Under the pieces are notes generated by a model. The model worked only from the letters and a program-made list of their open reading frames with translations. It was not told the DNA's origin and searched no databases. The position numbers and the translations under genes are program-made. Below are positions 3,051 through 30,100 of a DNA stretch of 64,000 nucleotides, piece after piece. Source of the DNA: Bacteroidia bacterium (GTDB taxonomy: Bacteria > Bacteroidota > Bacteroidia > B-17B0 > Aurantibacillaceae). Positions within the stretch are counted from its first letter, which is position 1. Each line of letters starts with the position of its first letter. The stretch lies in the NCBI GenBank assembly GCA_035439445.1, contig DAORKG010000020.1, positions 375 to 64,374 of the forward strand. The letters are read 5' to 3'.

Positions 3051-3090
3051 AAGCTTCACGGCTTCATTTTTTTACCAACCAAACACACAA

Positions 3091-11507: not shown

Positions 11508-11581
11508 GGTCCGGTAGTTCAGCTGGTTAGAATGCCGCCCTGTCACGGCGGAGGTCGCGGGTTCGAGTCCCGTCCGGACCG
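11508..11581 (+). tRNA. tRNA-Asp (anticodon GUC)
   Basis: Hand-folded cloverleaf. Acceptor GGTCCGG/CCGGACC plus discriminator G. Anticodon stem CCGCC/GGCGG with loop CTGTCAC. T-arm GCGGG-TTCGAGT-CCCGT. 74 nt, CCA not encoded. Confidence 0.95.
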
Positions 11582-11586
11582 CAAAA
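11568..11586. repeat. attL: 19-bp direct repeat TCCCGTCCGGACCGCAAAA (3' end of tRNA-Asp)
   Basis: Identical 19-mer recurs at 34699-34717. Confidence 0.8.
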
Positions 11587-11625: not shown

Positions 11626-11833
11626 AGGTTAAACATAGGTAAAACATTGCTTTCTGTTCATAACTTTCACCTATTTAGTCCTCAAAACACCCAAAATAGT
11701 TCCCTAATACTTTATCCATACCTATGGTATGGATTATCTATAAGCAAACCACTTAAAAAGAGTTCTTTTTTACCCAAATTACATTGATTGGACGCAATCG
11801 CATCCGATTGATTATTAATACTTTAACTTAATT

Positions 11834-11841
11834 TACTTTTG
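11834..11841 (+). promoter_or_regulatory. -7 box TACTTTTG for the 11946-13560 operon
   Basis: Matches TAnnTTTG, ~105 nt upstream of the ATG at 11946. Confidence 0.35.
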
Positions 11842-11945
11842 TATTGTCAAACGATTTCTATTCGCGATATGAATGAAATTTGACCATTTTGAAGACTGAC
11901 TGCGCAGCAGTTGACAAAGTGCCAAATCAATTAAAAATCACAATT

Positions 11946-12695
11946 ATGGCAAGACAAAAAGGAATCATAAAGTTAAAAGGTAAAATCGGAGATTTATCCT
12001 TTTACAAAACACAGGATGGCCATTTAGCTCGTGAAAAAGGTGGTGTGGATGCCAGTCGTATAGCTAACGACCCGGCATTTATCAGAACCCGAGAAAACGG
12101 CGCTGAATTCGGTTCGTCTGCTAGCTCAGGAAAGCTAGTTAGAAATACTTTAAGACCATTGCTTATGACAGCTTCTGATAATCGTGTGACATCACGATTA
12201 ACGAAGTTGATGACTGATATTAAAAACCTTGACGCAACCTCTGTAAGAGGCAAAAGAACAGTTGGCGTTGCCATTACTCTTGCTCCTGCAAAGGCGTTGT
12301 TAAAAGGCTTTAATTTCAACGACAAAGCAATTTTAGGAAGTATTTTATTTAAACCTTTTGCAGTGACTACTGCAACTGGAGTAATTACCATTAATGGACT
12401 TATCCCTGCAAATGATATTGCGTTTCCTGCTGGAGCAACGCATATCAATATCAAAGGCGCTTGGGCTAAAGTGGATTTTGCAAACAATGTTTCTGATATT
12501 AAGTATTCAAACGTAGTGAATCTACCACTTAATGCTGTATCATCAAACGTTGTTTTAACTCCAACAGCTGCGGCAACTGGTGCAGGAACAAATTTGTTCA
12601 TGTTGCAAATTGAATTCTTACAAATGGTAAATACCGTTCAATATTCTCTTAAAAATGGCGCTTACAACGCATTAAGCGTTGTTGAGGTAGCCTAA
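11946..12695 (+). CDS. hypothetical protein (249 aa), conserved-looking N-terminus MARQKGIIKLKGKIGDLSFYKTQDGHLAREKGG
   Basis: Long ORF, no signal peptide, Ala/Thr/Asn-rich beta-type C-terminal half. ATG at 11946 preferred over TTG at 11880. Function unknown. Confidence 0.7.
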   Translation: MARQKGIIKLKGKIGDLSFYKTQDGHLAREKGGVDASRIANDPAFIRTRENGAEFGSSASSGKLVRNTLRPLLMTASDNRVTSRLTKLMTDIKNLDATSVRGKRTVGVAITLAPAKALLKGFNFNDKAILGSILFKPFAVTTATGVITINGLIPANDIAFPAGATHINIKGAWAKVDFANNVSDIKYSNVVNLPLNAVSSNVVLTPTAAATGAGTNLFMLQIEFLQMVNTVQYSLKNGAYNALSVVEVA

Positions 12696-12766: not shown

Positions 12767-12994
12767 ATGAATCTTATAGACAGATTAAAAGCACCAACTC
12801 CAAAGTTCTTTAAAATATTAAGAAATGTTGGATTAGGATTAGCTGCCGCAGGCGGCGTAATTGTGGCATCGCCAATAGCTATCCCTACAATTATTGTAAC
12901 CATAGGTGGTTATTTAATTGTAGCAGGAAGCGTAGCGACTGCTATTAGCCAAGCAGTAACAACTACTGAAGGCGAAAATGTAAAAAGTAACTGA
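12767..12994 (+). CDS. small membrane protein (75 aa, two hydrophobic helices)
   Basis: VGLGLAAAGGVIVASPIAIPTIIVTIGGYLIVAGSVATAI is Gly/Ala-rich TM sequence. Confidence 0.6.
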   Translation: MNLIDRLKAPTPKFFKILRNVGLGLAAAGGVIVASPIAIPTIIVTIGGYLIVAGSVATAISQAVTTTEGENVKSN

Positions 12995-13021: not shown

Positions 13022-13360
13022 ATGACTGAAGAAAAAAATCAAACCGAAAAAACTCAAACTATTGTTGAGTTACAAGTTTTGCCATGTGCTAACGAAGTAG
13101 CAAAGGCAAAACAAAATGTTGAGGTATTGAATCATGAAAACCAAGATGATCCTCCATGCGGTAAAATTATTTTAACTGTTACTTGTAACGGTTCAAAATT
13201 AACCAAAGCAGATGCAGGTTATAATGCTGAACAAACTTATGAGATTTGGGCAGGTGCAAAACTAACAAAAGCTGATGCTGGAAAAATGCCTGACATTGAT
13301 GTTAGTGTGCATGAAAAATGTGGTTCAAAATTAACTAAAGCTGATTCAGGCAAAGCTTAA
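13022..13360 (+). CDS. hypothetical protein with three G[SA]KLTKAD[AS]G repeats
   Basis: GSKLTKADAG / GAKLTKADAG / GSKLTKADSG. The repeats are visible at DNA level at 13189-13218, 13251-13280 and 13322-13351. Confidence 0.6.
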   Translation: MTEEKNQTEKTQTIVELQVLPCANEVAKAKQNVEVLNHENQDDPPCGKIILTVTCNGSKLTKADAGYNAEQTYEIWAGAKLTKADAGKMPDIDVSVHEKCGSKLTKADSGKA

Positions 13361-13371
13361 AAAAATAGATT

Positions 13372-13560
13372 ATGTCAACACACAATAACATAGAAAGCGG
13401 AACAATCTTGGGTACTGTTTCCGGAACGGTTTTAACCGTAGCTGTGAACGTGGGTTCATCAGATATTTTAAAAACAGTTATTCTTGCTTCACTTGGTGCG
13501 GTGGTTAGTTTTAGCGTATCTTTGTTGTTGAAGTATTTAGTCAAAAGACTAAAAGAATAG
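13372..13560 (+). CDS. small membrane protein (62 aa)
   Basis: GTILGTVSGTVLTVAVNVG...VILASLGAVVSFSVSLLLKYL with a basic C-terminus. Holin-like architecture. Confidence 0.55.
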   Translation: MSTHNNIESGTILGTVSGTVLTVAVNVGSSDILKTVILASLGAVVSFSVSLLLKYLVKRLKE

Positions 13561-13617: not shown

Positions 13618-13714
13618 TTGGTTTTCATACAAAGCTACCAGTTATGTGCCAAAACTAACCAGTTACAAAGTGAGAGTTGCCACTTATTTGATAATTGGTA
13701 GTTTTGTGCCCCTT

Positions 13715-14101
13715 ATGCCAAAAGTCAAAACCCGAACGGCTGAAATCTATCTTGATAAGGATTTGATTTTGCATATAGTCATGTTAAATGACGTTGTTGT
13801 AGATTATGAAGATGCACTTGATAATTTTTTAGTTGTAAAACGATTCGTTAAAGAACGACATTGCTGTAAATTAATTGACATACGATGTAAATGTCATTTT
13901 GAAGCCAAAGCAAAGCAGTTTTTAGACACTAAAGATGTGCAAGGAAAAACATTATGTCGTGCACTATTAATCAATAGTAGCGTAAAGAAAATAACCTTAA
14001 ATTATTTCTTGAAATTCAACTCACAAAAAGTACCAACCAAATTTTTCACTGAATATAATGAGGCCATCAGTTGGCTGAAAAGTTACAAGCAAACTATATA
14101 G
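13715..14101 (+). CDS. hypothetical protein, STAS/SpoIIAA-like (DUF7793-like) fold suspected
   Basis: MPKVKTRTAEIYLDKDLILHIVMLND...AKAKQFL...ALLINSSVKKITLNYFLKF resembles SpoIIAA-like small domains. TAGTTTTG -7 box sits just upstream of the ATG at 13715; the ORF track starts at GTG 13646. Confidence 0.4.
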   Translation: MPKVKTRTAEIYLDKDLILHIVMLNDVVVDYEDALDNFLVVKRFVKERHCCKLIDIRCKCHFEAKAKQFLDTKDVQGKTLCRALLINSSVKKITLNYFLKFNSQKVPTKFFTEYNEAISWLKSYKQTI

Positions 14102-14524
14102 TTACTTTTTTAAATATTTATAAAACAAAGCTTTGCGCAATTGCATTAAATTAGAAAGTTGCTGTTGCAGATTAGTTTGATGCAACTCAATTTGAGCTAA
14201 AGCTTTTTGAACATCATAAAATGAGCGATTGCCAGAATTAACTGAATTTAAAACCTCATCTAAAACATCAATAACATCCCCTAAGCGAACAAACTCAATC
14301 ACTGAGCCTTTGAGATAAGGACGCAATAAACGAAGCTCCCAAATGCCTTGCAGCATGAAATAATAAAAATCCCTTTCATTTTTATCATCTGCCAGGAAAA
14401 CAAAAGAATTGCAGACATAATGCCTAAATGGCTTGCCTGAGTTGAGCCCTTTATTTAAAATAAAGAAATGTGGTTGATTGTAGATTTTACCTGATTTGTG
14501 GGTTTTGATTTTTGATTTAAGCAT
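14102..14524 (-). CDS. solitary single-TRD HsdS-like protein (140 aa)
   Basis: NSGKP...NSFVFLADDKNERDFYYFMLQG...LRPYLKGSVIEFVRLGDVIDV, then coiled coil LAQIELHQTNLQQQLSNLMQLRKALFYKYL. Pattern resembles half of a type I R-M specificity subunit. No hsdM or hsdR nearby. Confidence 0.4.
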   Translation of the reverse strand: MLKSKIKTHKSGKIYNQPHFFILNKGLNSGKPFRHYVCNSFVFLADDKNERDFYYFMLQGIWELRLLRPYLKGSVIEFVRLGDVIDVLDEVLNSVNSGNRSFYDVQKALAQIELHQTNLQQQLSNLMQLRKALFYKYLKK

Positions 14525-14898: not shown

Positions 14899-15759
14899 CT
14901 AATTACTCCAATTCAAAATGTTATCTTGAATACTAATATGATGTGCTTCAATATTTCCAATTTGTCGAAAATCAAATTTCCCTATTTCATTTTTATAGAC
15001 CTGAAATTCGTCACATAATGCATTCGTCAGTTCGATATTATCTGGTGTAATAAATGTACTAGATATAGCCCAGTTTACTCCAATTTGTTTTGAGGGAACG
15101 CTTGGATAACATATAGCGTGGGCTTTACCTTTGGCATGCAACAGAGCTAAATTACAATATGCTGTTGTAATAATATAAGTCTTCAAATCTCTTTTAGCAG
15201 GTAGTCTAAATTTATTAGCCAAGTATCTGAAAAAAGTATGATTTGCCTCTTTTAAATCTTGCTCTTGATCTTTTACTAAGTCATCATATACAGCACCATA
15301 ATATTTATCATATTCTGAAATGCGACTATCCATATCAGGAAATGTGACTATTATTGAAGACATTTGGGACTTAATCATCCATCTACCGATTGTTACCCTG
15401 AACACATCACCTACATTTTTAGTTTCAATCCAATTTTCAATTAATTCGAAATAAGAGATAGGGCGATTTTCAGAGCAATAAAAAACATTTTGACCTGGTC
15501 TATTACAGCGCGCAAAATAATTTATTGCATCCTTTGGAGGTAAGGATATTTGACTAATTTTTTCGAAAAAATCAATATCTACATGGGTTCGAGTTCTGAA
15601 AACAGGCATGTTTACTTTCTCTTCAAAAAGTATAACTGGAAAATTTATTAATTTACTATAAGCTAAAATTGCTTTTTCGTAACAGTATTCATCATTGGGA
15701 TTAAGAGCTTCTAATGAATCAATAATTTCATTTACATTTTTAACTAGCATAAAAAGCAT
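14899..15759 (-). CDS. RES-domain protein (toxin-like, NAD+-targeting family)
   Basis: ARCNRPGQNVFYCSENRPISYFEL (Arg, Tyr, Glu) and AICYPSVPSKQIGVNWAI (Ser) match the R-E-S signature spacing. 286 aa. Confidence 0.55.
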   Translation of the reverse strand: MLFMLVKNVNEIIDSLEALNPNDEYCYEKAILAYSKLINFPVILFEEKVNMPVFRTRTHVDIDFFEKISQISLPPKDAINYFARCNRPGQNVFYCSENRPISYFELIENWIETKNVGDVFRVTIGRWMIKSQMSSIIVTFPDMDSRISEYDKYYGAVYDDLVKDQEQDLKEANHTFFRYLANKFRLPAKRDLKTYIITTAYCNLALLHAKGKAHAICYPSVPSKQIGVNWAISSTFITPDNIELTNALCDEFQVYKNEIGKFDFRQIGNIEAHHISIQDNILNWSN

Positions 15760-15770
15760 TTATTGTATAA

Positions 15771-15778
15771 CAAATATA
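15771..15778 (-). promoter_or_regulatory. -7 box TATATTTG for the RES gene
   Basis: Reverse complement of CAAATATA, 12 nt upstream of the ATG at 15759. A T5 run and small GC hairpin lie immediately upstream on the - strand. Confidence 0.4.
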
Positions 15779-15780
15779 GG

Positions 15781-16535
15781 TAAAAAGCGCCTGCGGCGTG
15801 CGGTGGGATGAGGTTGCAAATAGTGAATGAAGTGAAAGTGCATCCTGAAAGGTGCGCTGAACGAAATGAATGGTTTGCAATCCGTTGTGCGGCGAGCCAC
15901 CTGCGAGTGGAGCGAGGGTGTGCAGCACGGGAGCACGAAGAGGTACGATGAGGGCGGGTGCAAACTATGTTGCCAGTGTGGCGAAATAAATAAAGCATCT
16001 GCTTTGATTTATGCCACACGATAGACAACACGAAGCAAAACTAAATGCAAGCAAAGCAATTTATTGCTTACCGCTTAGCGGCTTGCATAAGTTTTGCTGA
16101 AGCCCGAGCGACCCAGCAGGCGAGCTGAAAAGTTGGCAGCCGGTGGACTGAAAGCTGCTGAAATGAATGAAGTGAAATGGCACCCAGTGAAAGTAGTGAA
16201 ACGGATGTAACGGGTGAATAATGAAACGAAATGAATAAAGTTGCTTGAAGGACAAAGAAGGCTGCCGTGACGAAAGTACGTGCAAATTGCAAAATGTGTG
16301 ACAAACCCAAAGCCCTAAAGGGCAAAATAGCTTATGCGAAATGCCTTGAAAAGATAAAGCAGAGCATGGGCTATTTTGGTTTGGCGCATCTTTTTGCTTT
16401 GCACCTGCTGAGGAACGCCACTTTACCTGTTCGAGAAATGCGTTAGCGATTGTAGCGAATATCCTTTTTATCCTATAGGGTAAAAAGATAGTAGCGGAAA
16501 GCGCGACCGAAGGGAACGCTCAATAAAATCTATTA
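15781..16535. other. G+C/purine-rich ORF-free block: candidate structured ncRNA or REP-like repeat cluster
   Basis: Hand count ~349/740 G+C for 15781-16520, versus 19/60 in the adjacent coding line. Only mutually overlapping 62-95 aa - strand ORFs. Many local helices and an internal duplication of 14-nt and 12-nt exact motifs. Confidence 0.5.
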
Positions 16536-17060
16536 TTATAAAATTATATTTGATTTTCTAAAATAATTGTAATCATGTAACTTCTCATCTGATGTATCTG
16601 CAAATCCTAAAAATTCTATTAATCTATTCTTTTCATTACCAAATAAAAACAGTTCCATATCTATCTTGTTTTCTACAGATGTAACCCAGCCGAAAAAGGA
16701 TGCGGAATTTAAAATATCTAGTAATTTCCTTCTAACAGGGGAATCATATTTTTTAATGTTTAAATAATCAACATCAGTTTCAGTAGGGTATTTTTTTAAA
16801 TAAATATCAGAAAGAGATGAGATTCTATATTCGTTAGACATATTTTCTCTTTCATATTTACTAACAGCGTATAATACCGAGAAGCTTTTAATTGTCTTCC
16901 AAATTTGAATTTTTTCGTTAGAAGCTCTCTCTGAAGATGAAGTTGCATCTGCATTAAAACCGAAAAACATATCAGGTTCATATCCTGTTGTTAATGCTCT
17001 TCTAAAGAAATAAGTATCGGCTTTAACAAAATACTCTTTTTTATTTTCAATAATTGACAT
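16536..17060 (-). CDS. hypothetical cytoplasmic protein (174 aa)
   Basis: No signal peptide. Lies 7 nt downstream of the last T9SS cargo gene on the same strand. No recognisable motif. Confidence 0.55.
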   Translation of the reverse strand: MSIIENKKEYFVKADTYFFRRALTTGYEPDMFFGFNADATSSSERASNEKIQIWKTIKSFSVLYAVSKYERENMSNEYRISSLSDIYLKKYPTETDVDYLNIKKYDSPVRRKLLDILNSASFFGWVTSVENKIDMELFLFGNEKNRLIEFLGFADTSDEKLHDYNYFRKSNIIL

Positions 17061-17067
17061 TTAAAAC

Positions 17068-18255
17068 TTACTCTTTAATAAACTTAATGGTTTTTATTTG
17101 TTCTTTATGACGAATAGATAAAAAATACATGCCATTAGATAGATTCAATAAATTAACCTGATTATTAAAGTGACTTTCAAATACTATTTGTCCTAAATAG
17201 TTTTTAATTTCAATAGTTGCGTTTTGAAATTGATTTTGTTTATCAATAATATTTAAGATAGAATTTGTTGGATTAGGATAAATTAGTAAACTATTATCTA
17301 TTTCGGTTTCTTTTAGACCAACGAAATCAATATTTTTCCAAGTTTCCTTAATGCGAGCTTGATTTTCATTTAATCCTGTTGTTATATATAATGCTCCATT
17401 CATAGAAAAAAACATACTACCCTTTCTTCCTAAACTTGGTATACCAGAATAATTTGTCAGACTACTATCTAAAGGATTAAATACTACTAGTGTATTTGTT
17501 ATTATCCCAGTCGAATCTAAGCCTCCATATAAACATCCTTTCTTATTACATACAGATGTACCAATATAATCTTGTGCAGGCAAGGTAATATTTGAAATTT
17601 TTCTCCAACTATCAGACAAAAAATTGTATTGATAAACATAATGATTATAACTTGAATTACTATTCATGCCATAACATACATATCCAGTACTGTCAATTGA
17701 AAAAAAAGAACCACGCCAAATTGGTATTGGCAAATTGTTTTTTTGCGACCAAGTAGTTGTTATAAAATCATATTCCCAAACTTCATTTAGAGTTGTGTTA
17801 TCTGCTTTTCTGCCACCAATAATATATGCCTTATTTTTAATTATAAAGTTACCCATGCCTTGTCTTGCAGAACCTGGAAAATTTGGTAACACTGACCAAG
17901 TATTTAAAATTGGATCATATTCAAGAAAATCGTTAAAGCATGTATTGTCACATTTAAGACCTCCGAATAAATAACCCTTATTGTTATAAGAAAAAGCTGT
18001 AGCATATTGTCTTTCTTTACCAACAGGAAGATTTGCCATTGATGACCATGTTTCTGAAGTACAATCAAATATGTAGCCATTACCTGTACACTGCCAGCCA
18101 ACCTCTAAGCCACTAAAACAATATGCTTTGTTATTAATTAAAAAAGATGTACCGTCGTCTCTCTCTGTTCCAGGAAAATCAGTTAATTGAAGCCACGACT
18201 GAGAATGAAGTTTACTGAACAAGCATAAAAGAGTCAAAAAAATAATTATTCTCAT
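17068..18255 (-). CDS. Kelch-repeat protein with T9SS C-terminal sorting domain
   Basis: Signal peptide MRIIIFLTLLCLFSKLHSQ. Kelch-like NNKAYCFSGL / NNKGYLFGGL / KNKAYIIGGR. CTD LLIYPNPTNSILNI...NGMYFLSI. Confidence 0.8.
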   Translation of the reverse strand: MRIIIFLTLLCLFSKLHSQSWLQLTDFPGTERDDGTSFLINNKAYCFSGLEVGWQCTGNGYIFDCTSETWSSMANLPVGKERQYATAFSYNNKGYLFGGLKCDNTCFNDFLEYDPILNTWSVLPNFPGSARQGMGNFIIKNKAYIIGGRKADNTTLNEVWEYDFITTTWSQKNNLPIPIWRGSFFSIDSTGYVCYGMNSNSSYNHYVYQYNFLSDSWRKISNITLPAQDYIGTSVCNKKGCLYGGLDSTGIITNTLVVFNPLDSSLTNYSGIPSLGRKGSMFFSMNGALYITTGLNENQARIKETWKNIDFVGLKETEIDNSLLIYPNPTNSILNIIDKQNQFQNATIEIKNYLGQIVFESHFNNQVNLLNLSNGMYFLSIRHKEQIKTIKFIKE

Positions 18256-18256
18256 A

Positions 18257-19786
18257 TTACCTAATATTTATAGCCTTAAAATTAACGGTTGGCTTATGCT
18301 CTTGTTTTAAACTCAACACATATAATCCATTAGCTAAATGTTGTGTATTGAACTGCTTAGTCCCAAACGATTGAGTTAATTCAATATTATCAATTACTTT
18401 CTCTGAAGATAATTCAATTAACTGTAACTGTGCTTTTCCATCAAAATCTAAAATAGAGTAGTTTATATTCAACTCATCTTTAAAGGGATTGGGATAAACA
18501 GTTAAGCCAACATTAAGCGAGTTATTTTCCACTATGCCTGTTATCAAATTTTGTGGACAATTACTATTTCCAAAACATCCATTGCTATCTACCTTTAATA
18601 ACCATGTTTGTTGTAAAAGATTTAAGCTCGTACCACTAGACCAACCAACTGCTGCAATATCTTTATTAGGTAACTCTATTATATCCCATAAATAATTATC
18701 TGCCGTTGTATCTAATGGTGTAGCATCTGGACGATAATCTTTCCACCATTTTAAATTACCTAAACTATCCGTTCTTATAATAAAGCCCTTCAATTCATTA
18801 TATGAAGTTCTTCTACTCCCACTCATTATAAAATCACCGTTATTGCATTTTTTTAAACCTGTAACTCCGATATCTTGTTGTTTTAAACCGTAATACTTTT
18901 GCCATATTATATTACCATTCAAATCGAGTTTTGTTAAAGATGGACGATCCCACTTGTATGTAAAATTCCATACACTATCTACAATAGTAGTTGCTACATA
19001 AAAATTTTGATTATTACTATTAACAATACCCATATAGCCACTTCCAGATTCTGTTATTTTATAGTTCCAAATAAAATTTAAATTACTATCTAGTTTCATC
19101 AACCGCGATTCAAAGCCCCATGTACCCGATGTGGTGCTAAAACCAATTAAAAAACCTTTATCTTCAGCTAATTCAGAAGCAGTTATACTTCGATATTCAC
19201 ATGTACTTAAATATATTTTGGAGTTTATTAATACTCCATTTGTATCTACAACTCTTATGATTGGCTTATATAGACCTGAATGACCTAAACCACAAGTACT
19301 ATCTGTAGTGCCTACTAATAATAACTTATCTGTTGATTTTGAATATGGCACAATTTTTTGTGGCAAAGAATAATAACTTGTATCACCATAATAACTCGTG
19401 TGAATTGTATCTCCGTTTAATTTATATTTATAGAAGAGACTACTTATATTGTTGTAATATCCACCACCACCCGTGCAGTACAACTTATTATTGTAGTTTA
19501 AAATTGCATTTGGATAATAATAGCTATTAATAAAGGCCGTTGAATATTTATTAGTACTGATTGAAATACCATCATTTGTTATTTTACCAACAACGCCTTC
19601 ATGAGTATCTAACAATTGTAAAGGGGCATAAAAAGTATCATTAACCATAGTAAAACTCATACTCCCATTATTTTGACTGTAAAAGTCAAAACGCTTATTG
19701 AAATAATACTGTGCTTTTATACTTATTACAAAACTTAAAAAGTAAAAGAGCCATACAACTCTTATACTAAAATATCTGAACCTCAT
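18257..19786 (-). CDS. beta-propeller-like secreted protein with T9SS CTD
   Basis: Signal peptide MRFRYFSIRVVWLFYFLSFVISIKAQ (ATG at 19786). Repeats GNIIWQKYY / GNLKWWKDY. CTD TVYPNPFKDELNINY...NGLYVLSL. Confidence 0.75.
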   Translation of the reverse strand: MRFRYFSIRVVWLFYFLSFVISIKAQYYFNKRFDFYSQNNGSMSFTMVNDTFYAPLQLLDTHEGVVGKITNDGISISTNKYSTAFINSYYYPNAILNYNNKLYCTGGGGYYNNISSLFYKYKLNGDTIHTSYYGDTSYYSLPQKIVPYSKSTDKLLLVGTTDSTCGLGHSGLYKPIIRVVDTNGVLINSKIYLSTCEYRSITASELAEDKGFLIGFSTTSGTWGFESRLMKLDSNLNFIWNYKITESGSGYMGIVNSNNQNFYVATTIVDSVWNFTYKWDRPSLTKLDLNGNIIWQKYYGLKQQDIGVTGLKKCNNGDFIMSGSRRTSYNELKGFIIRTDSLGNLKWWKDYRPDATPLDTTADNYLWDIIELPNKDIAAVGWSSGTSLNLLQQTWLLKVDSNGCFGNSNCPQNLITGIVENNSLNVGLTVYPNPFKDELNINYSILDFDGKAQLQLIELSSEKVIDNIELTQSFGTKQFNTQHLANGLYVLSLKQEHKPTVNFKAINIR

Positions 19787-19787
19787 A

Positions 19788-20570
19788 TTACCTGATACTA
19801 ACAATCTTAAAGTTAACGCTTGGTTTATTACTTTGTTTTAAACTTAATAGATAAAGCCCATTAGCTAAATGTTGTGTATTAAACTGTTTTGTACCAAAAG
19901 ATTGGGTTAATTCCATATTGTCAATTATTCTTCCAGAAGATAATTCAAGTGTACTGCAACCTCCTGATAAATTAACTATTTGAGCAGAGCCATCACAACA
20001 ACTTGAGCATGTTGGTTGGGTTACCTGGATGGAATATGTTATAGGTGTTGAACATACAGTGGATGAAGATTGACCTGCTAATAAATGAATATTAGAGACA
20101 CTGGAATAGGTATTGGAATATACATACAAGGTATCAAAGCAACCTGATTGATTATCTCCAAGGAAATTTAAGTTTAAATATCCAAAAGTGGTATCTCCTG
20201 GCGCATTTAACCTATAATATCCCATATATCTTTGCCCTGTATTTAGTTGCCATGCAGGAATCCAGAAACAACCAAAAACCGATGAAGGTAACGAACATTG
20301 ATTTCCATAATTTGAAAAGGGTTGACCACTCAATTTTGGCAAATCTCCTAATTTAACATTTGCCTGTTTACTTGACGCACTGTATATAACATTATCTATG
20401 CCTACATAACGTGAAATTTTTATATCAATATTTCCATCAGCGTTAACATCAATAATAGCAGTATCTTTTGCTACTAGTACCTTATCATTAATAGCAACCG
20501 TAACAGTTTGACTATACGAAGAAATAGAAGTAAATAGTAATGCAATTTTTAATAACGCTTTATATTTCAT
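19788..20570 (-). CDS. secreted protein with truncated/chimeric T9SS CTD
   Basis: Signal peptide MKYKALLKIALLFTSISSYSQ. The last ~45 aa are near-identical to the CTD tail of the 18257 gene, but the PNP-type start of the CTD is missing. Confidence 0.65.
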   Translation of the reverse strand: MKYKALLKIALLFTSISSYSQTVTVAINDKVLVAKDTAIIDVNADGNIDIKISRYVGIDNVIYSASSKQANVKLGDLPKLSGQPFSNYGNQCSLPSSVFGCFWIPAWQLNTGQRYMGYYRLNAPGDTTFGYLNLNFLGDNQSGCFDTLYVYSNTYSSVSNIHLLAGQSSSTVCSTPITYSIQVTQPTCSSCCDGSAQIVNLSGGCSTLELSSGRIIDNMELTQSFGTKQFNTQHLANGLYLLSLKQSNKPSVNFKIVSIR

Positions 20571-20576
20571 GAGAAT

Positions 20577-22055
20577 TTATTTTTGTACTATGACTTTTTT
20601 AACCACAATTTCATTGGATTTCCTATTTTTAATTTCCATAAAATAGGCTCCATTTTCTAAATTAACATCAAGATTTATTTTACTACTAGCCAACTGCAAT
20701 TTATTTTTATATACTATTTTACCTGCTATATCACTAATATTTACTTCTATATCACTACTTTTAAAATCTTCAAATTGTAAGTTGAAATTGCCATTACTTG
20801 GGTTAGGAAATAAGACAAATTCATTGGTTACTATTTTTTTAATATCAGTAGCGAAATCACAATTAACCGAATCACAACCCAAACTATCAGTTTTAACTAA
20901 CCATAAATTTTGATAGGGTTGCCCAATGTGATTGTATTGACCCGTAAGGATAAAACCTCCATCTTGTGTTGTATTAAATCCATAGAAGTAGTTTGGTATT
21001 GTTGGTTCTCCATCATAATGACGTTTCCATATTAAATTACCATTTTTGTCTGCCTTCAATAAAAAACCTGTCCATGCTGTTGTTGTTCCATATTCTCCAG
21101 AGCCTATCATTACAAAAGATGAATCGGACAATTGTTTTACACTTGGTAACCAATCATTTGGAGTATTACCTAGAGTAAAATATTTTATCCACTTCTGAAC
21201 GCCATTTCTATCTATTTTCATGAGAGCTGCTTGATTATTATAGGAACCACACATTACAAAACCGCTATCTAACGTATATATTGCCGCTCCGCAAGGTTCA
21301 TCACCACTTGGAGTTCCATATTGATTTCTCCAAATTAAATTACCTGAAGTATCTGTTCTTACTATTCCAAAATCAAAATAAGAATTTCCACTACTATAAT
21401 AACCATACCTACCTCCTAGCAAATACTCTGTATTATTTTTTATCACTTCCAAACTCAAATATACTTCTTCATAAATAGTACCTAAAGTTTTACGCCATAT
21501 TAAATTACCAGTGGTATCTGTCTTAATTAATAGAATATCATTATAGGTTGTGTTAGGATTTGGCGATGAATTACCAAGAATAATAACTTTATTATCAGAT
21601 GTTATTTTTAATTCAGCTGATTGATCATTATTAATATTAGTATATTTTTTAAACCAAACTAAAGAACCATTTGTGTCTATTTTTGCCAAAAAAACATCAG
21701 AGTTTTGTATAGTTGAATCATAAGTAGATCCAACACATAAATAATTTTTATCAGGCAATTCTTTAACGTCTGTAAAAAAGTCTCCACCACTTAAGGAAAA
21801 ATCAAATTGCTTTTTCCAAAGCATATTACCCTGAGCATCAGACTTCACTAGATATGCCCCGATATAGTTTGTCACTATACTCATTAATGAGCCACAAGCC
21901 AAAAAATTTCCGTTTGAAAGCTCTATTACATTAACCCCACCATCTAATAATGAATCGTTACCTGTATTTAAATTAACATTAAAATTATATTGTGCTTTGG
22001 AGGTAATACTCCAAAGCATAACAACAATAATTAATATTTTTTTAAAAGATACCAT
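20577..22055 (-). CDS. beta-propeller-like secreted protein with T9SS CTD
   Basis: Signal peptide. Repeats GNMLWKKQF / GSLVWFKKY / GNLIWRKTL / GNLIWRNQY / GNLIWKRHY. CTD LFPNPSNGNFNLQF...NGAYFMEI. Confidence 0.8.
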   Translation of the reverse strand: MVSFKKILIIVVMLWSITSKAQYNFNVNLNTGNDSLLDGGVNVIELSNGNFLACGSLMSIVTNYIGAYLVKSDAQGNMLWKKQFDFSLSGGDFFTDVKELPDKNYLCVGSTYDSTIQNSDVFLAKIDTNGSLVWFKKYTNINNDQSAELKITSDNKVIILGNSSPNPNTTYNDILLIKTDTTGNLIWRKTLGTIYEEVYLSLEVIKNNTEYLLGGRYGYYSSGNSYFDFGIVRTDTSGNLIWRNQYGTPSGDEPCGAAIYTLDSGFVMCGSYNNQAALMKIDRNGVQKWIKYFTLGNTPNDWLPSVKQLSDSSFVMIGSGEYGTTTAWTGFLLKADKNGNLIWKRHYDGEPTIPNYFYGFNTTQDGGFILTGQYNHIGQPYQNLWLVKTDSLGCDSVNCDFATDIKKIVTNEFVLFPNPSNGNFNLQFEDFKSSDIEVNISDIAGKIVYKNKLQLASSKINLDVNLENGAYFMEIKNRKSNEIVVKKVIVQK

Positions 22056-22058
22056 TAA

Positions 22059-22892
22059 TTACTCAATAACTAATTTACTTTGACCTATGTTATTATTATT
22101 TTGAGTCAATGAAACTATATAAATTCCATTTACAAGTTCTTCTATATTAATTTCAATTTTAAGAGTAGATACAGATTCAAACCTTTTTGAGTAAACTGAC
22201 TGCCCCAAAAGATTAGAAACAGTAATGATAATTGGATCATCGGATTGTTGATTTTCATCGAATTCTATTTTGAAATTTCCCTTGTTTGGATTAGGGAATA
22301 TTTTAAAATTGCCAATAGTTATATAATTCTCATTGCCAATGGCTTGATATATGCCTGTTATTTCAATCCAATTTAACGTATCGCTTATTATAGGGTTATT
22401 AAATTTTTTAATTTGCGGCGTGTAGTTTAATAAATAATTATTTACACCGCTTTGGTATATTGTATTACTTGAAAAATATACACCTATGTTATTACAAGCA
22501 TATTTGAAAAAATTTCCAAACACACAGTACATTTTTAAGTAGTAATAATTCCCTAAGACTAGAGGAGTAGATAATTGAGTATGTAAATATTCTCTTAAAT
22601 TCAAAAATGAATTATCATAGCACCAAATACCTGTAAACGTATTACCTGTTCTTGGCAACTGTTTATATGTATAGGCGCTACAAGGAGACACTGTTGAAGT
22701 ACAACAAATATTAAAAACATCTGGTGTTCCATCTTGAGTAGGATTGTACCAATTTACACAAAGTGTAGCGGAATGATTACCACCAATTATTGGACAATTA
22801 CTTAATAATTCAAAACTTGAATTATTAACCAAATTTTGCCCATTTAAAAACAAATTAGATAAAACAAAAACTATTAACCCTATTTTTTTCAT
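22059..22892 (-). CDS. secreted protein with T9SS CTD (paralogue of 22939-24132)
   Basis: Signal peptide MKKIGLIVFVLSNLFLNGQ. N-domain NLVNNSSFELLSNCP. CTD FPNPNKGNFKIEF...NGIYIVSL. Confidence 0.75.
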   Translation of the reverse strand: MKKIGLIVFVLSNLFLNGQNLVNNSSFELLSNCPIIGGNHSATLCVNWYNPTQDGTPDVFNICCTSTVSPCSAYTYKQLPRTGNTFTGIWCYDNSFLNLREYLHTQLSTPLVLGNYYYLKMYCVFGNFFKYACNNIGVYFSSNTIYQSGVNNYLLNYTPQIKKFNNPIISDTLNWIEITGIYQAIGNENYITIGNFKIFPNPNKGNFKIEFDENQQSDDPIIITVSNLLGQSVYSKRFESVSTLKIEINIEELVNGIYIVSLTQNNNNIGQSKLVIE

Positions 22893-22908
22893 TTAAATAT
22901 AGATACAA

Positions 22909-22936
22909 AAAAGCCCCTACTAAAAAGAGGCTTTTT
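22909..22936 (-). terminator. weak hairpin between paralogous T9SS genes
   Basis: AGCCCCT..AGAGGCT (one mismatch), followed on the - strand by TTTTTTG. Confidence 0.35.
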
Positions 22937-22938
22937 GA

Positions 22939-24132
22939 TTATTGTTGCACCACTAATTTTTTAGTTATAGTTTTATCATTGTTAGTAATCTTAACAAGAT
23001 AAATACCACTTTTCAAATCTATATCAAAATTAGTTGACGCATCAGTAACGTGATGATTGCTACGATAAACAATTTCTCCAGCAATATCAGTTATTATAAT
23101 CGCAATATCTTCTTCTTTAAAATCAGCAAACCGCAATTTAAAATTGCCATTACTTGGGTTAGGAACTATTGACACACTATTTTGTAATTTATTATGTTCA
23201 TCAACTTTTACAGGGTTTAAAACAATAACGTTAACAGTGTGATTGTACACAGCACTATTAAATGTTTCTGTAGCTTGGTAACTTGTATTTACAGTTGGCT
23301 TTACATAAATCCCCGGCGCATTTTTTATAAAAGTATTACTCATATCATACCAATCAACATTCAAACCAGTAATTGCCGGACCAATTAAAACACTATCTCC
23401 TAAATAAACTGTTGTATCTCTATATTGCCATTGGGGAGTTGTTATATTTTCAACGCTTACATCGTCTATAAAACAACCACTACCAGGATAATTACTACCA
23501 TTTATACTTAATGTATCTGTTAATGTATCATTTTTGAAATTCCCAATTACAACGTAGTTTTCACTACCAGTTGCTTGATAAACTCCCTCTATTTTCACCC
23601 AATTAACAGTATCTTTTATAATTGGATTATTAAATTTATAAATATGAGGTATATAATTTAAGACATTATTATTTGTTGAAGTGCTATTTGTTGATGAAAA
23701 ATTATTTTGAAACGATAAAGCTATATTATTTGTCCCATATTTTCCCGAATAATTTGCGCCTGGAATATTGACATAAAAAGTAGTGTAATAAATCATGCCT
23801 GTAACTAATTGGTTATTTAGTTGTTTTTGAGCATACTCTCTATAATTTGAACCAAACCAATTAAATGTAATAATACCTATAAATGCATTCCCTGAATGAG
23901 CTGATTGATAAGAATAATTATTTTGGTTTGGCACACTATAATTAGGATTAGTCGAACATGAATTTAAATACTCAGCATCATTGTTTGGTGGTGATGACCA
24001 TCCAACTGCTTTTGTAAGTTGGCCTGCACTGGAAGGACATGAAGAATATATCTCAAAATCACCATTACCAATTAAATTTTGTGACATACAAGGTCTAAAA
24101 CTTAATAATATATATATATATACATATCTCAT
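22939..24132 (-). CDS. secreted protein with T9SS CTD
   Basis: N-domain NLIGNGDFEIYSSCP is paralogous to the 22059 gene. CTD VPNPSNGNFKLRF...SGIYLVKI. Confidence 0.75.
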   Translation of the reverse strand: MRYVYIYILLSFRPCMSQNLIGNGDFEIYSSCPSSAGQLTKAVGWSSPPNNDAEYLNSCSTNPNYSVPNQNNYSYQSAHSGNAFIGIITFNWFGSNYREYAQKQLNNQLVTGMIYYTTFYVNIPGANYSGKYGTNNIALSFQNNFSSTNSTSTNNNVLNYIPHIYKFNNPIIKDTVNWVKIEGVYQATGSENYVVIGNFKNDTLTDTLSINGSNYPGSGCFIDDVSVENITTPQWQYRDTTVYLGDSVLIGPAITGLNVDWYDMSNTFIKNAPGIYVKPTVNTSYQATETFNSAVYNHTVNVIVLNPVKVDEHNKLQNSVSIVPNPSNGNFKLRFADFKEEDIAIIITDIAGEIVYRSNHHVTDASTNFDIDLKSGIYLVKITNNDKTITKKLVVQQ

Positions 24133-24162
24133 GTTCTATACTTAAATTATTTTAACTCTTAC

Positions 24163-27100
24163 TTATTTTTGAATTACCAATTTCTTGATAATAGTTTGAT
24201 TAGAATTTATGTTATAAAATTTAACAAAATATATCCCATCTTTTGCATCAAAAACAAATTCTGTCAAAGCATTAGCGATTGAATGTTTTCCTTCATAAAT
24301 AGTTTTTCCTGCTATATCATTTACAATCACTTCAATATCACCATCTGTTACCCCAAATGTAGCAACATGAAATAAATTAACGCCAGGATTTGGGAAAATC
24401 ACAGCGTCAAAGCTATCTTCATTATCCATTGCATTGTCGTTTTGATGTGACTTAGCTAAACGTGCATTTGATTGTTCAGGGCAGTTATCAGGATATACAT
24501 TATAACTATCATACATTACATTTAGCATAACTCTTGCCTGATAAACCATTACACCATCAGTAAAAGGACAACCATATGCTAAGGTAGCCAAAGCTAAACT
24601 ATCATTAGTAGTTATAGTACCCTCTGCCTGTTTGATAGCTAAATTATAAAATGATTTATAGTTTAATTCGACAATATCTGATGATGCAATAGAGGCATTC
24701 AAATTGTTAGCAGTGGTTAAATCACCGGTAACGATATTTGTTTCTATATCTGCTAAAACTTTACGATTAGTGTTTTGGCTATTAGCATAAAATGTTTGTA
24801 AAATAGATGAATTAGCCATTAATGTAGGATCTGCCTTTAATAAGCGGTATACCTGATTTTTATTAATGGTTTTTGTTTGCTGCGCATTATTTTGATAATT
24901 AATTACATCTAATGCAATTTGTTCTAATTGATTGATTACAAAAGCAGGAGGATTACCCCCGCCATTATTTAAAACTACAGGGCAACCAATATAAAGCGGG
25001 TTACTTGTTGTAGGAACTAAATTCCCATTATTTAAACTATATAATGTTGCTAAAAAAGGCAATGTGAATGACTGAGATGACCCATCGGGATTAAATGGAC
25101 TAGCACTGTTATTATTACGAATATACATTTTAGAATATGTTGCATCTGAGCCAGATAAAATTCCTGTTTTAAAATTACCTGTCCAAGTTCCAGTCCATCG
25201 GTTATCTTGCGGGCTTGTTGCAGTACCTTGTTGCCCAATAATACCATTGTTTAATAATGCAAATCCATATTTATGGTTACTCATTACATTATTATTAAAC
25301 AATGTATTTGTGCAATTACCACTAAAAGCAATACCGTGATAGGTGTTGGTTGTTGTATTACAGTTTACATTAATTCTATCTGATATATTATCAACAATAC
25401 CATATACTTTAGAATTAGCAGTGATACCAAAACCAGTTACATTATTACTGTTTACTTGGCTTACATTAACATTTGCCTGAGCACCGCTTACAGCAATACC
25501 AAACTGTTGAGGAGTTGCGCTGCTTGGGTCAACCACTAACTTAATTGTATTGGAACTAATTTTGTTAGTTGACTTTTCCCAATTAACATAAGCAATACCA
25601 CGATACACATCTGTGATAGTATTATTAGCCGTTTGTATAACAGAGGTTGCAGATGATGAAACAGGAATAATATTGTATGGGCTACTGATAATATCGCTCA
25701 ATGCAATAGCATTTGATACATAATTGGTAGTAATAGCAGAACCACCAACTTGGGGAGAGATAATATTATTATCTACATTCACAGCACCTGCATATTGGCT
25801 ACTAGATGATGTAATAGAACCTATGTTTAATAATCCAAATGTAGCATCAAGGATTACACCGTTCTCAATATTATAAATAGTGTTATTACTTACATTATAT
25901 GTCTTGTAACGATTAGTAATAGATTTTACCCCATACTTTCCTTTAACATTTGGACCAGTTGTAGCGGTACTTTGTGAACTACGAATATCATTTAAGGTAA
26001 TTTGATGTTCAAAGTAATTAAATGTATTTATTGCTCTACTACAATCAACAAACTTATTTCCTTTACTAGCGCTATTATTTGTTGACGTTACTCGTAAACG
26101 GTTATTGTATGTTTCGTTTGGTGCAGTGGCGTTAATACCAATACCACCAGCTGTATTGCTTTTACCAAATGTTGCAGTGTTTTGATAAATAGTATTATAT
26201 GACGTAAAGTTAGAGCCAATTAAATCCACACCTATACGTTGGTTATCAATAATATTTGTATTGCTGGCACCACCTAACACAAATTCAAAATAAGTTGGAG
26301 TTGCGCTTTGAGGATTTTGCGTAACACCAACAGCTTTTAAACGGATAGCAGCAGATGGTTTTGAATTTGCAGGTGCAGGCGCTTTTAAAAATGCACCTAG
26401 AGTTCCTGTTTGCAAATAGGTTCCATTATCAATTACATTATTTGTAAAAGGTGCGCCAGGATTTGTTGCTGCTGCTCCAATAGTTGATGCAGATGGGAAA
26501 GTTTGAATACCAAATGGAATATCACGACAAGTAAAAACACAATTTGTGATACTAAAAGGATAATTTGGAACTGCTTGACTATAACTATTAATGAAAACAG
26601 AAACATCGTTACGGTTAAATGTTGAATTTATTAAATTAAAAACATTGCCAGAGGCTTGTATATTACCTGTAACATCAACAGCTACTTTAGCATCTTCTAT
26701 TAAAGAATTTGTAATAGTAAGTTGCCCCCCGTTTTGCACTTCAATTCCCTGCCACATATCTCCACAAGAATATAGATGAGAGTTTATAATACGTAAAGCT
26801 GCACCATTTGGAACAATTATTTTTACACCGGCAGCCATTTTAAAATCAGCATTAACAAATAATTTAGTTCCTACAATTGTAACACTATTATTAACACAAA
26901 ATACACTATTTACCGCGTTTGATGTAATTGAACCAGATGTTCCAATTGGATTACAATTTGAACAATATGTACACGGTGGACTAAGTGTAACAATAACACT
27001 AGAACTTTGTGTACCACATGAATTGGTAACTTCAAGAGTATATACAGTGGTAACTAAAGGTGAGGCAACAGGGCTTGGGCAAGTATAGCATGACAAACCA

Positions 27101-30100
27101 GAATTTGCTGGTAACCATTGATATGTGCCATTCCCTGTACCTGTTAAAGTTGTAAAACTATTTGGACAAATAGTTTGATTGATTCCTGCATTGGCATTTG
27201 GTGCACCTGTTTGTGTAACGTTAACATTATGAGTAATTACAATAGGGTTTGTAACAAGTGGTCCACTCAATGTAGCTGTAACAACATAGGACCCTGTATT
27301 AAAAACATGTGTGATTGATGCTCCTGTTCCATTTGGGCTACCATCACCAAAATTCCATGTTACCGTATAATTTTTATAACAGTTATTAATATCAAACTGA
27401 TAAGTAGGACATCCTGTAATCGTATTTACAAACGCAAAGTCGGGAGCAACAGGTAAGGGAACTTTAGAATCAACATTATTTACTAATGTATATTGGTTCT
27501 TCATATCAATAGGACTGCCAATAGCTCCAGCTGGTGTAATTAAATTAACACTTGCTTGTATAGCAATGTTTCCTGTAGCAGCATCCGGATTTGGTATTTC
27601 ATTTAAAAAATCTGTTTTTATCCCATCAATAAAATATAAATGGTTGTTTGGACCAATTTGCATAAATGATGGTTTTGTATTATAAGGTAATAAAATACCT
27701 GTATTCGAATTTGTTGCAACATCATGTTTCACTATAAAATCATTGATTACAATTCCACCTACGTACCCTAGACCTGTTGCATAAACATATTGACCATTTG
27801 GGCTAAAACTACAGCCTTGATAAGAAGACACGCCATTATAATGAGGTGTTATTAATTCATTTGATATGACACCTGTTGAGCTATTAAAATCATATAAAGC
27901 TAACTGACTACCAGATAAAGCAATTTTATTGCCAAAAGGCGAAGCTTTTAATTGATTAACATAACCTATATTACTGAAAGAGCCACCACATGATGGATAG
28001 GCATCTGGAGCATTACTACTAAAATTAGCATTAGTAATTCCGTTTTGTGTTACTAAATAAACATAAAATCTTTTATTTTGCACGCTATAGTATATAACCC
28101 AATAATCTTTCCCGTTACAATGCGGTATAGCAGTTATAGATTCCCAAAGTATTTCATTTGAAACACATGCTGGTAAAGGCAATAAACCTTGATTAATTAT
28201 TGTACTAGATGCCAAATCTATCAATGCGTATCCTCCTTGAAAGTTCATATTACTTGATAATTGACTAAGATTTGTTGGTTTGGGAGTATTGAAAATGTAA
28301 TATTGATTAGGGAAACCGGGTGCAGGAAAAGTGATACTATTAGAAAAACTAATATTGAAATTTTGTCCTAAATCATTTAACAATGAAGAAGATTTATACG
28401 CACTTGGTAAAGGATTGGTATTAATTTTATTAGGACTACCACTGCTTACTTTCCAAACATCCACACCATTTGCGTAATATAAATCATTTCCAGTATTATC
28501 TGAAATAGAAACACATAGAGAATTGATACCTGTAATAGATGTTTGAGGTGTAAATGTATTATCATTTTTTACGGGGATCCCTGAACTAAAATCTAATGAT
28601 ACATAATCTCCAAAATGCCAGTTTGCTTGTGAGATTTTTTCAGGGTCTAAGGTACAATCTACAACTAAAAATGAAATATTTGATGTTTGGGATGCTCCTG
28701 CCGCATCTGTTACTGTTAAACTAATATTATATGTACCAGGTGCGCCAAAAGTTACAGACGGAGGACTAGCTGTGTTACAATTTGTACTATGATACGTTGG
28801 CAATGAACTACCTGTTATATTCCATTGCCAATCAACAGCAGCATTACCGCTTAAACAAGTTAATGTTGCAAAATTTACTGGCTGACCAACACAACCATAT
28901 CCTTGCGAGGCACTAATATCAGAATTTAAAACACTTGCTGCTACACAACCAATATCACCTATTAAACCAGTAAAAATCAAATTACTGTTTGTCCATAAAT
29001 TAGACCATTTAATGTTTAAACAAGCCCACATCCTTAATTTTTGGTCATTTGTAAATGTATTCCTGCAAGGATCATCTTCATAAGCCATATAATCATTTGG
29101 TAAATCTTTTATACCACAAAGAGGAACGTATGATTCTGAACATGAATTTGGTCTGTTATTAGGATTACATTGCCCAGTAAAGCCAGACGACATAGGTGCA
29201 ATATCACATATCCCATCGCCATTTAAATCACAAGGGTCATTAGAACTTCCCGCGGCATTAGTTCCTGCACAAACTCCTGTTGGATTTTGTCCTACATTCG
29301 TGTTAGGAAAAAATGGATGCTGTAGAGATAAGAAATGACCAACCTCATGAACCAGTACTTTTCCATCTTGATTGCTAGGCCATAAATTATAAGTATTGTT
29401 TGTTAATGTATTTTCTCCAAAACATCCGGCAGACATAATTATACCTTCAGGTGTTCCAATTTGGTTACCAAAAGCATCATAAAAATAAACACCTGCCATT
29501 GGAGAGTTATTTACATATAATTGGTCAACTATCCAGATATTTAAATATTTATCTTTTGGGAACGTGTTAACACTAGCATTATTTGTTAAATTAACAAGCG
29601 CGGTTGCACTACCTTGTGTATTTATATATACCTGAATTGCCGGATCATTAATTGTTGACACATCATATCTCATGACTCCATATTCAGTATTGTTCCCTGG
29701 ATCTTGAGACCAATTTAAATTACTTGGATATGGATTTTTAGCCAAACAAAACTGAATTTTTGTATCGACACTAAATTGGCCTTGATAATTAACTTGACTT
29801 GCTGCAAAAGCTACATTTAATGCATTTATTTGAGATTGAATTTGTGCATAAGATAAGTTTGTTCCACTGCCATATGCCATGCCTGGTGTTTTAATTACAT
29901 GAACAACAACTGGAATGTTATATATAGCACTATTAGTAATTAAATTATTGTTATTATTAAGATTATTTGTTGCTAAGTATTGTTTTACTTGTTTGTTAAA
30001 AGCTAATACTAAACTATCATAATTCGGGTTAGCACTTCTATAATTTTGTTCAAGTAAATGGTTACCACAAGTTGGCGTAACTGTTTGAGCAAATAGGTTA

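Follow-up and report, generated by a model that had tools for sequence, protein, structure and literature searches.

We report a large structured RNA from a 64,000-nucleotide stretch of a Bacteroidia bacterium contig (GenBank DAORKG010000020.1, positions 375 to 64,374; hereafter the window). Judged from sequence comparison, positions 15779-16427 of the + strand very probably (probability about 0.85) encode a noncoding RNA of 649 nt with extensive structure, belonging to a family without a counterpart in Rfam 15. Within the databases and literature searched, it is a new RNA class, and its gene belongs to the core of a conserved module on tyrosine-integrase elements of Bacteroidota. The analysis followed up a prediction, made from the letters of the window, that a G+C-rich block of about 755 nt without open reading frames (ORFs) encodes one large structured RNA on a mobile element. 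The block is composite, consisting of the 649-nt RNA and a Flavo-1 motif at 16421-16512 (+). The proposal of a structured, mobile-element-borne RNA stood, strongly supported by homologues, covariation and lack of coding signal.

Structure and conservation of the RNA

The block stands out by composition. G+C amounts to 349 of 740 nt (47.2%) over 15781-16520, identical to the hand count of the original prediction, against an average of 32.7% for the window; in 200-nt windows it peaks at 0.53 between flanks of 0.27-0.32. GC and AT skew are both strongly positive and purines make up 60% of 15781-16520, a richness that arises from the GA-rich internal loops and junctions of the RNA. As also predicted, no ORF of the + strand reaches 60 aa (47, 52 and 59 aa only), and the - strand holds overlapping ORFs of 62-95 aa in three frames.

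A first lead to homologues came from blastn against plasmids, which gave a distant 40-nt match, with further collinear fragments, in a 2.4-kb G+C-rich unannotated gap of a Marivirga plasmid; the ORFs preceding this gap include homologues of two small membrane proteins of the window. Apart from this lead, the plasmid search with the block gave only Flavo-1-like matches in Paraclostridium, and the same search against phages gave no match. Eighty genomic loci (numbered L below) were then fetched via an alignment of p249, a conserved 249-aa protein encoded upstream in the window; they come mostly from Crocinitomicaceae and other Flavobacteriales, and also from Sphingobacteriaceae, Chitinophaga and Paludibacteraceae. 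By blastn and nhmmer, the RNA homologues measure about 650 nt, are collinear and share 65-78% nucleotide identity. In the p249-fetched loci the RNA always lies downstream of p249 on the same strand, 1.2-9 kb away. Among the 45 loci whose sequence extends 9 kb or more past p249, at least 37 contain the RNA, 33 detected by nhmmer and four more as G+C-rich blocks by blastn linkage. A metagenome scan seeded with the RNA core motif instead of p249 recovered the same module architecture.

The homologues fall into four subfamilies: A, the type found in the window, with 20 full-length copies; B; C; and D, of about 900 nt. A 5' core ending in AGCCYG-N8-9-GCAGGCGAGC is common to most members of A, B and D and to one of five members of C, and the 3' domains differ among subfamilies. 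The core motif occurs in 20 of 20 subfamily A sequences (in L017 with GCAGGCUUGC) and in 20 of 25 other GC-rich blocks.

Some copies have particular surroundings. In plasmid p1 of Marivirga sp. BKB1-2 (L007), the ORF-free G+C-rich gap of 2.4 kb at 16059-18454 comprises the RNA homologue and further hairpin-rich sequence; the p249 copy of this plasmid (19142-19885) is frameshifted, and several other multi-kb gaps appear in its PLSDB gene table, itself known to be incomplete. One genome (L031; 4555-5331, -, and 11934-12729, +) carries two complete modules head to head; the RNA of the left copy is without the P1 5' strand described below and may be decaying.

In the alignment, the conserved span of subfamily A starts at GGUAAAAG (15779) and ends at CUUUACC (16427), and the two ends pair. 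The 5' strand of this terminal closing helix, P1, is GGUAAAA (15779-15785), where conservation starts; its 3' strand is CUUUACC (16421-16427), and conservation stops just past ...UUACC(UG). Five homologues exchange GGUAAAA/UUUACC for GGUUAUA/UAUAACC, compensatory at two positions. The RNA as a whole folds into three domains, one at the 5' end and two stem domains in the middle and at the 3' end, all closed by the helix joining both ends.

Next to P1 lies P2 (15795-15898), placed by a covariation scan and helix model, a long, irregular hairpin whose internal loops are rich in purines (GAAUGAAG motifs) and whose tip can carry an additional hairpin (15837-15858). Of the 21 aligned pairs in its long stem, 10 show compensatory changes, and 78% of cells are paired. 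The pairing of 15814-15820 with 15874-15880 within P2 was recovered by both the covariation scan and the minimum free energy (MFE) fold, U-A changing to C-G in 6-7 sequences. No structure analysis recovered the helix GTTTGCA (15873)/TGCAAAC (15959) that had been drawn from the letters of the block, 15874-15880 pairing with 15814-15820 instead. Two hairpins follow: GUGUGGC.../...GCCACAC (15976-16019), with compensatory changes in six of seven pairs, and a long hairpin with a branched tip at 16034-16098 (strands 16034-16052 and 16081-16098), with such changes in 16 of 17 pairs. In other homologues the sequence of the latter is entirely different and the pairing is preserved, which confirms the helix 16046-16052/16081-16087 proposed earlier.

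The core motif reads AGCCCG-N9-GCAGGCGAGC in the window (16101-16125). GGCAGCC/GGCUGCC closes the stem of domain 2 (16135-16266), in which both strands bear GAAUGAAUGAAG purine loops and the tip varies; the helices of this domain are 83-99% paired, and most pairs show compensatory changes. Domain 3 (16267-16416) is a long stem with two hairpins (16312-16323 and 16324-16377), whose helices of 28 and 14 pairs include 27 pairs with compensatory changes. Pairing in domain 3 is 90-100% in three of four helices and 80% in the short GCCC/GGGC hairpin at 16312-16323, which had been predicted and is kept in homologues. Exact repeats that had suggested two diverged units of about 340 nt are there to be seen, TGAATGAAGTGAAA at 15824 and 16164 and the AACGAAATGAAT pair, and correspond to GAAUGAAG-type purine motifs of internal loops and junctions; self-blast gives only 30 nt at 83% identity, and the two-unit model does not hold.

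Covariation supports this structure against controls. From the 20 full-length copies of subfamily A, RNAalifold returned 90 pairs, 56 of them with compensatory changes. For this structure, sliding the partners by 1-3 columns lowers the share of paired cells from 94.8% to 37-44% and the number of compensatory pairs from 56 to 10-20; none of 500 shuffles matched the observed values. A 146-pair model taken from the window's own MFE fold has 84.9% of cells paired against 37-41% slid and 92 compensatory pairs against 29-38 slid, a lead that is inflated because the model derives from one of the aligned sequences. The + strand folds with an MFE of -231 kcal/mol (z = -6.7), its complement with -181. 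This lower MFE and the conserved G-U pairs identify the + strand as the RNA strand, as the earlier remark on a G/A-rich strand had implied. With 649 nt, several domains and compensatory changes in 56 of 90 and 92 of 146 pairs (10-38 in slid controls), the RNA ranks among the large ornate noncoding RNAs of more than 500 nt.

RNAalifold also proposed a long-range helix (127-133/587-593) and a further helix, its helix 3, with compensatory changes in none and in one of six pairs, respectively. Both were dropped because they lack support, and the local P2 helix fits the covariation better. Other contacts may exist: L017 exchanges the tandem G.A of GCGAG (15903-15907) and GCGAGC (16120-16125) for A-U/A-U, and a 2-bp covarying mini-hairpin presents GCC to an invariant GGC. 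Read from the alignments, these features suggest long-range or pseudoknot contacts.

The block might instead have been a decayed protein gene from a donor of higher G+C content, or a pile-up of REP- or MITE-like repeats. Its G+C richness relative to the host, the common open frames of the - strand and the Flavo-1 element at its 3' tip fit such an origin. Against a protein gene, the 20 RNA homologues share no ORF in either frame or position (no dedicated BLASTX-type search was made), and column entropies by codon phase are 0.79/0.84/0.84 for the RNA against 0.58/0.36/1.28 for the p249 coding sequence in the same loci, so the RNA is without 3-base periodicity. Compensatory changes and conserved G-U pairs are specific to the + strand. 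Against a pile-up, the 64-kb window holds a single copy, and the homologues in other genomes are full-length, collinear and one per module, not modular. With the slid and shuffled controls, these results refute both origins for 15779-16427, and we regard the possibility that no RNA gene is present as negligible.

Comparison with known families likewise argues for novelty. A scan of the window at Rfam 15 gathering thresholds found only tRNA and Flavo-1, and in the block Flavo-1 alone; a permissive scan (E <= 10) of 15600-16700 gave only chance-level matches of 14-23 bits. Across seven sister loci covering all four subfamilies (including three other A and one each of B, C and D), no Rfam match fell on the RNA. 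Positions 15779-16427 match none of the Rfam 15 models, among them those for GOLLD, ROOL, OLE, HEARO, raiA, RNase P, tmRNA, group I and II introns and riboswitches. The view that the block belongs to no known Rfam family therefore holds for 15779-16427, where cmscan is silent, and fails for the last ~90 nt, which are Flavo-1 (RF01705). No description of the RNA was found in the literature searched on Flavo-1, DUF6943, Crocinitomicaceae noncoding RNA, G+C-rich intergenic regions (GC-IGRs) and large structured Bacteroidetes RNAs.

The Flavo-1 add-on was identified by cmscan at 16421-16512 (+) with 58.0 bits against a gathering cut-off of 42 (E = 5e-10, full model 1-76), its core hairpin spanning about 16446-16505. 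It covers 92 of the ~755 nt and does not account for the whole block. As subfamily A conservation ends at 16427, Flavo-1 lies outside the conserved unit; it is absent from 18 of the 19 other full-length RNA copies, only L021 having it in the same place. The long hairpin at 16461-16489 noted in the original prediction is real, and it is the core stem of Flavo-1 instead of a part of the large RNA. With ~76 model positions, Flavo-1 is a short hairpin compared with the 649-nt RNA.

Flavo-1 is supposed to be a Bacteroidetes motif. In a Bacillota plasmid, that of Paraclostridium bifermentans (NZ_CP094938, L002), it matches at 186-261 (-) and 2999-3075 (+) with 56-58 bits, an inverted pair about 2.7 kb apart that flanks amidase and HNH endonuclease genes, an arrangement reminiscent of mobile-unit termini. 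Three more Paraclostridium plasmids match Flavo-1. The motif is among the most abundant small RNA families (PMC9029176), and in Flavobacterium psychrophilum it lies sense or antisense to transcribed regions, with many copies untranscribed (PMC9723704), from which we infer that Flavo-1 may be a DNA-level repeat.

The gene module and its integrative element

ORF clustering across the loci and the RNA-seeded metagenome survey agree on the composition of the module. It begins with a gene for an Xis-like protein of 66 aa or a tRNA, followed by p249 (with or without DUF5675), a small membrane protein, in some cases a protein with KLTKADAG repeats, a 62-aa membrane protein, opposite-strand DUF6943 and cargo genes, and the RNA. 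The opposite-strand genes are DUF6943 (or SymE with a helix-turn-helix (HTH) protein), preceded by hypervariable cargo. Searches of the module proteins against PHROGs, PADLOC and NCBIfam gave no match.

In the window, p249 (11946-12695, +) anchors the module. It is followed on the + strand by a 75-aa membrane protein (family F2, 12767-12994), a 112-aa protein (F8, 13022-13360) and a conserved 62-aa membrane protein with two helices (F2', 13372-13560). The 112-aa protein, for which no family match was found, contains three near-identical [GS]xKLTKAD[AS]G repeats, and related ORFs of families F6 and F8 end with the same motif. An accessory DUF7793 gene (13646-14101, +; Pfam E = 1e-19) comes next. 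Conserved as the last gene of the leftward cargo operon is DUF6943 (14102-14524, -; Pfam E = 2e-36), and a weakly RES-like cargo ORF of 286 aa (14899-15759, -) diverges from the 5' end of the RNA.

The p249 family comprises 5175 homologues without a Pfam domain and, at 50% identity, 3250 clusters. It is found across Bacteroidota, with a length of 249 aa almost without exception. An AlphaFold2 (AF2) model built from 81 diverse sequences reached a predicted local distance difference test (pLDDT) score of 92 and predicts an N-terminal β-meander, a helical domain and a C-terminal β-sandwich; this confident model had no match in PDB or BFVD at E <= 0.001. A model built on 19 close sequences had been poor (pLDDT 60) and gave no meaningful fold search. 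The RNA and the conserved p249 leader share a AUGAAUGAA motif. The ~300 nt before p249 (11650-11945) are conserved across loci; they hold two palindromes and a TAnnTTTG-type box (TACTTTTG), and the p249 leader within them bears GAUAUGAAUGAA, a purine motif found twice in the RNA.

DUF6943 is the protein family most common near the RNA in RNA-seeded loci (14 loci, always upstream on the opposite strand) and its most constant divergent neighbour. By eye it resembles half of a type I restriction-modification specificity subunit, with one target-recognition-like domain and a C-terminal coiled coil. In subfamily A, the genes between the last membrane-protein gene and the RNA read leftwards and start 20-300 nt from the RNA 5' end, and the gene just 5' of the RNA is divergent in 18 of 19 loci. 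Cargo across loci includes genes for an Mrr-like nuclease (Mrr_cat), CHAT, T5orf172/MUG113, ImmA-like and SymE proteins and hydrolases. Some loci have no cargo; in these minimal modules the RNA comes directly after the last membrane-protein gene.

The cargo ORF beside the RNA had been called a RES toxin, a label that does not stand: Pfam RES falls below its cut-off (E = 0.004; 17.6 bits against 23.2), NCBIfam and PADLOC gave no match, and the ORF does not qualify as part of a RES-Xre toxin-antitoxin pair. The suggestion that the RNA is the partner of the RES protein likewise fails, as the slot is hypervariable and the RNA stays conserved beside other cargo or none.

The RNA lies inside a 23-kb integrative element (11568-34717), because the 3' end of a tRNA-Asp gene (11508-11582, +), the integration target, is repeated at the far border beside a tyrosine integrase. 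The attL core of 19 nt (11568-11586) recurs exactly as attR at 34699-34717, and the integrase (Arm-DNA-bind_5 + SAM_5 + Phage_integrase; 33276-34523, -) lies within, as expected of a tRNA-targeted tyrosine-integrase element. The RNA module occupies the tRNA-proximal end. att repeats were also sought just right of the RNA (16.4-17.3 kb), where none was found, the true attR being at 34.7 kb. Other loci have a gene for tRNA-Arg, Phe, Cys, Glu, Lys or Met in this position, and the distance from the tRNA gene to p249 downstream is constant (365-440 nt). RteC, HTH_17, SymE and AAA genes occur in sister loci, and in RNA-seeded loci an integrase is often found about 850 nt downstream of the RNA.

Right after the tRNA terminator come tandem 11-mers, GGTTAAACAT-A-GGTAAAACAT in the window (11627-11648), whose two copies change together between elements (GGGTAAACAT twice, GGTACAACAT twice); they are probably arm-type integrase sites. 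Copies of the GGTAAAACAT type also occur at 34565-34590, near the integrase, and 11-mers occupy the same position in L008, L014, L016, L017, L024, L036, L042 and L053. The 11-mers resemble the 5' end of the RNA (GGUAAAAG) without covarying with it. Elsewhere the island encodes, as apparent cargo, six proteins that bear T9SS sorting tails (17068-30198), one of them a 2011-aa ORF, and at the far end it holds an AAA-like ORF of 390 aa, an HTH_17 Xis-like gene (31908-32186) and the integrase.

A second backbone (L110 and L127) combines a primase, two small tyrosine recombinases, an RNA that is divergent in sequence and full-length, and RHS-tip toxin/immunity cassettes. On the metagenome contig Ga0206101_1000182 (L110; 14.3 kb), the unit of primase, recombinases, RNA, RHS-tip toxin (Glyco_hydro_108) and immunity gene is repeated in tandem: the RNA is present twice, at a distance of 8.5 kb, and the stretch ends with another primase gene. 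The contig's G+C content of 53% indicates a host background unlike that of the window.

IMG/VR was scanned with an exact RNA 17-mer and the core pattern, which gave only chance matches inside coding genes, and with exact p249 peptide patterns, which found no relative. Because these scans gave no relative, we do not recognise the module as viral.

Possible functions

The function that we tentatively favour, by analogy and at less than even odds, is that of a stable, trans-acting RNA that scaffolds a ribonucleoprotein (RNP) with proteins of the module. Transcription would start at a promoter dedicated to the RNA or, in minimal modules, would reach it as the last part of the p249 operon, and the RNA would accumulate as a stable trans-acting species. 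It would scaffold an element-encoded RNP with p249 and possibly the membrane proteins, and would regulate no particular neighbouring gene. We count for this proposal that the RNA is co-inherited and co-oriented with p249, that in minimal modules it directly follows the last membrane-protein gene, and that the AUGAAUGAA motif links it with the p249 leader. Several observations weigh against it, besides the inflated lead of the 146-pair model. Eight of the 45 long p249 loci have no RNA within 10 kb, and p249 is not an obligatory partner, because the RNA homologues of L110 and L127 occur without it. p249 showed no recognisable RNA-binding domain or fold match in Pfam, PDB and BFVD. The transcript ends would be those set by P1 and the limits of conservation; a sigma-70/terminator scan and an upstream alignment found no fixed promoter box or terminator near the RNA, the alignment having only loosely placed TTG/TGTG and no fixed Bacteroidetes -7 box.

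More speculatively, and somewhat less probably, the RNA could be the first member of a new, phylum-wide class of ornate RNAs in Bacteroidota that, together with the novel-fold p249 and the holin-like membrane proteins, forms an element-encoded machine or particle. Such a particle could be a membrane-anchored RNP or an RNA-containing shell for element transfer, exclusion or defence; alternatively, the RNA could be a ribozyme. We know of nothing of this RNA-protein kind that has been described.

Two other explanations connect the RNA with its genetic surroundings. The RNA might serve the adjacent variable cargo, as a general antitoxin or regulator, as a bidirectional promoter or insulator, or as the conserved flank of a cassette-exchange hotspot. 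The near-constant divergent 5' neighbour in subfamily A (18 of 19 loci, starting 20-300 nt from the RNA) would suit such a role, as would the toxin- or defence-like character of the cargo (Mrr_cat, CHAT, T5orf172, ImmA-like, SymE, RES-like) and the recurrence, on the unrelated primase/recombinase elements, of an RNA divergent from RHS-tip toxin/immunity cassettes. We nevertheless consider it unlikely. The cargo changes completely while the sequence and structure of the RNA stay the same, minimal modules carry the RNA without any cargo, and 650 nt of nested covarying helices far exceed the needs of any known antitoxin or promoter element. Moreover, tandem repeats of the ToxI type were not found, and no obvious complementarity of the RNA to the neighbouring ORF was noticed, though no systematic test was made.

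Less probable again is a role in the DNA life cycle of the element, as a pre-primer or origin RNA in the manner of ColE1 RNA II, or as a cofactor of excision, transfer or packaging in the manner of phi29 pRNA. Paired ends closed by a helix such as P1 typically mark stable trans-acting RNAs, not run-through primers, and no conserved DNA motif follows the RNA 3' end. Compact elements that hold an integrase, an Xis-like gene and the p249 module without a recognisable Rep protein would leave room for this role, as would the circular plasmid p1 of Marivirga, which carries the module, and the second element type, in which the RNA comes directly after primase and recombinase genes; larger elements, by contrast, encode AAA or primase-type proteins. 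A link of p249 to capsids or packaging was not found: it had no PHROG match and no BFVD or PDB fold, and exact IMG/VR scans, including two short RNA motifs, gave no homologue. The remaining probability lies with functions not yet imagined, including catalysis or RNA-only assemblies.

Known large RNAs and significance

Among known systems, GOLLD and ROOL share with this RNA the size class (about 600-900 nt), a dense multi-domain covarying structure and carriage on mobile or integrated elements. Like this RNA, they are often found beside tRNA genes and are without an assigned biochemical function. They differ in that there is no sequence or structure homology (no Rfam match at E <= 10), and in host phylum and element type, here a Bacteroidota integrative element of the integrase/RteC type, with p249 and DUF6943 as partners. 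GOLLD and ROOL are reported to form homo-oligomeric cages (PMC12286853). OLE is also a structured RNA of ~600 nt encoded with small membrane protein genes and a protein of an otherwise unknown family, and its membrane localisation is reported to depend on a protein partner (PMC3413148). That our RNA, like OLE, is encoded with small membrane proteins suggests a membrane-associated RNP. OLE differs in being a chromosomal, non-mobile gene of anaerobic or extremophilic Firmicutes, and the RNA has no Rfam match to it.

HEARO/omega RNA, bridge RNA and other guide RNAs are likewise structured, borne on mobile elements and conserved with element proteins. The RNA described here is three to four times larger, has no Rfam match to them and no adjacent IscB, TnpB or IS110 gene, and no variable guide-like segment was seen next to the element end. 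ToxI and retron RNAs are, similarly, noncoding RNAs beside toxin or defence effectors on mobile DNA. Unlike ToxI, the RNA contains no tandem 36-nt repeats, is divergent from the RES-like ORF and stays invariant while the effector varies; unlike retrons, the module showed no reverse-transcriptase ORF.

Few bacterial RNAs longer than 500 nt are known to have rich, conserved architecture of a tertiary style, namely rRNA, RNase P, group I and II introns, OLE, GOLLD, ROOL, HEARO and raiA, and each has, or is expected to have, unusual biochemistry. The RNA reported here is linked to the p249 proteins, a very large family that is still uncharacterised, and lies beside a slot in which toxin and defence genes gather as cargo. 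Carriers are available in culture (Wandonia haliotis JCM 16083 and Brumimicrobium salinarum LHR20), which makes its function directly testable. At the very least, it gives Rfam a new, well-supported family and is a good candidate for cryo-electron microscopy. If it does scaffold an RNP of the element, it would represent a new kind of mobile-element machinery in a major environmental and host-associated phylum.

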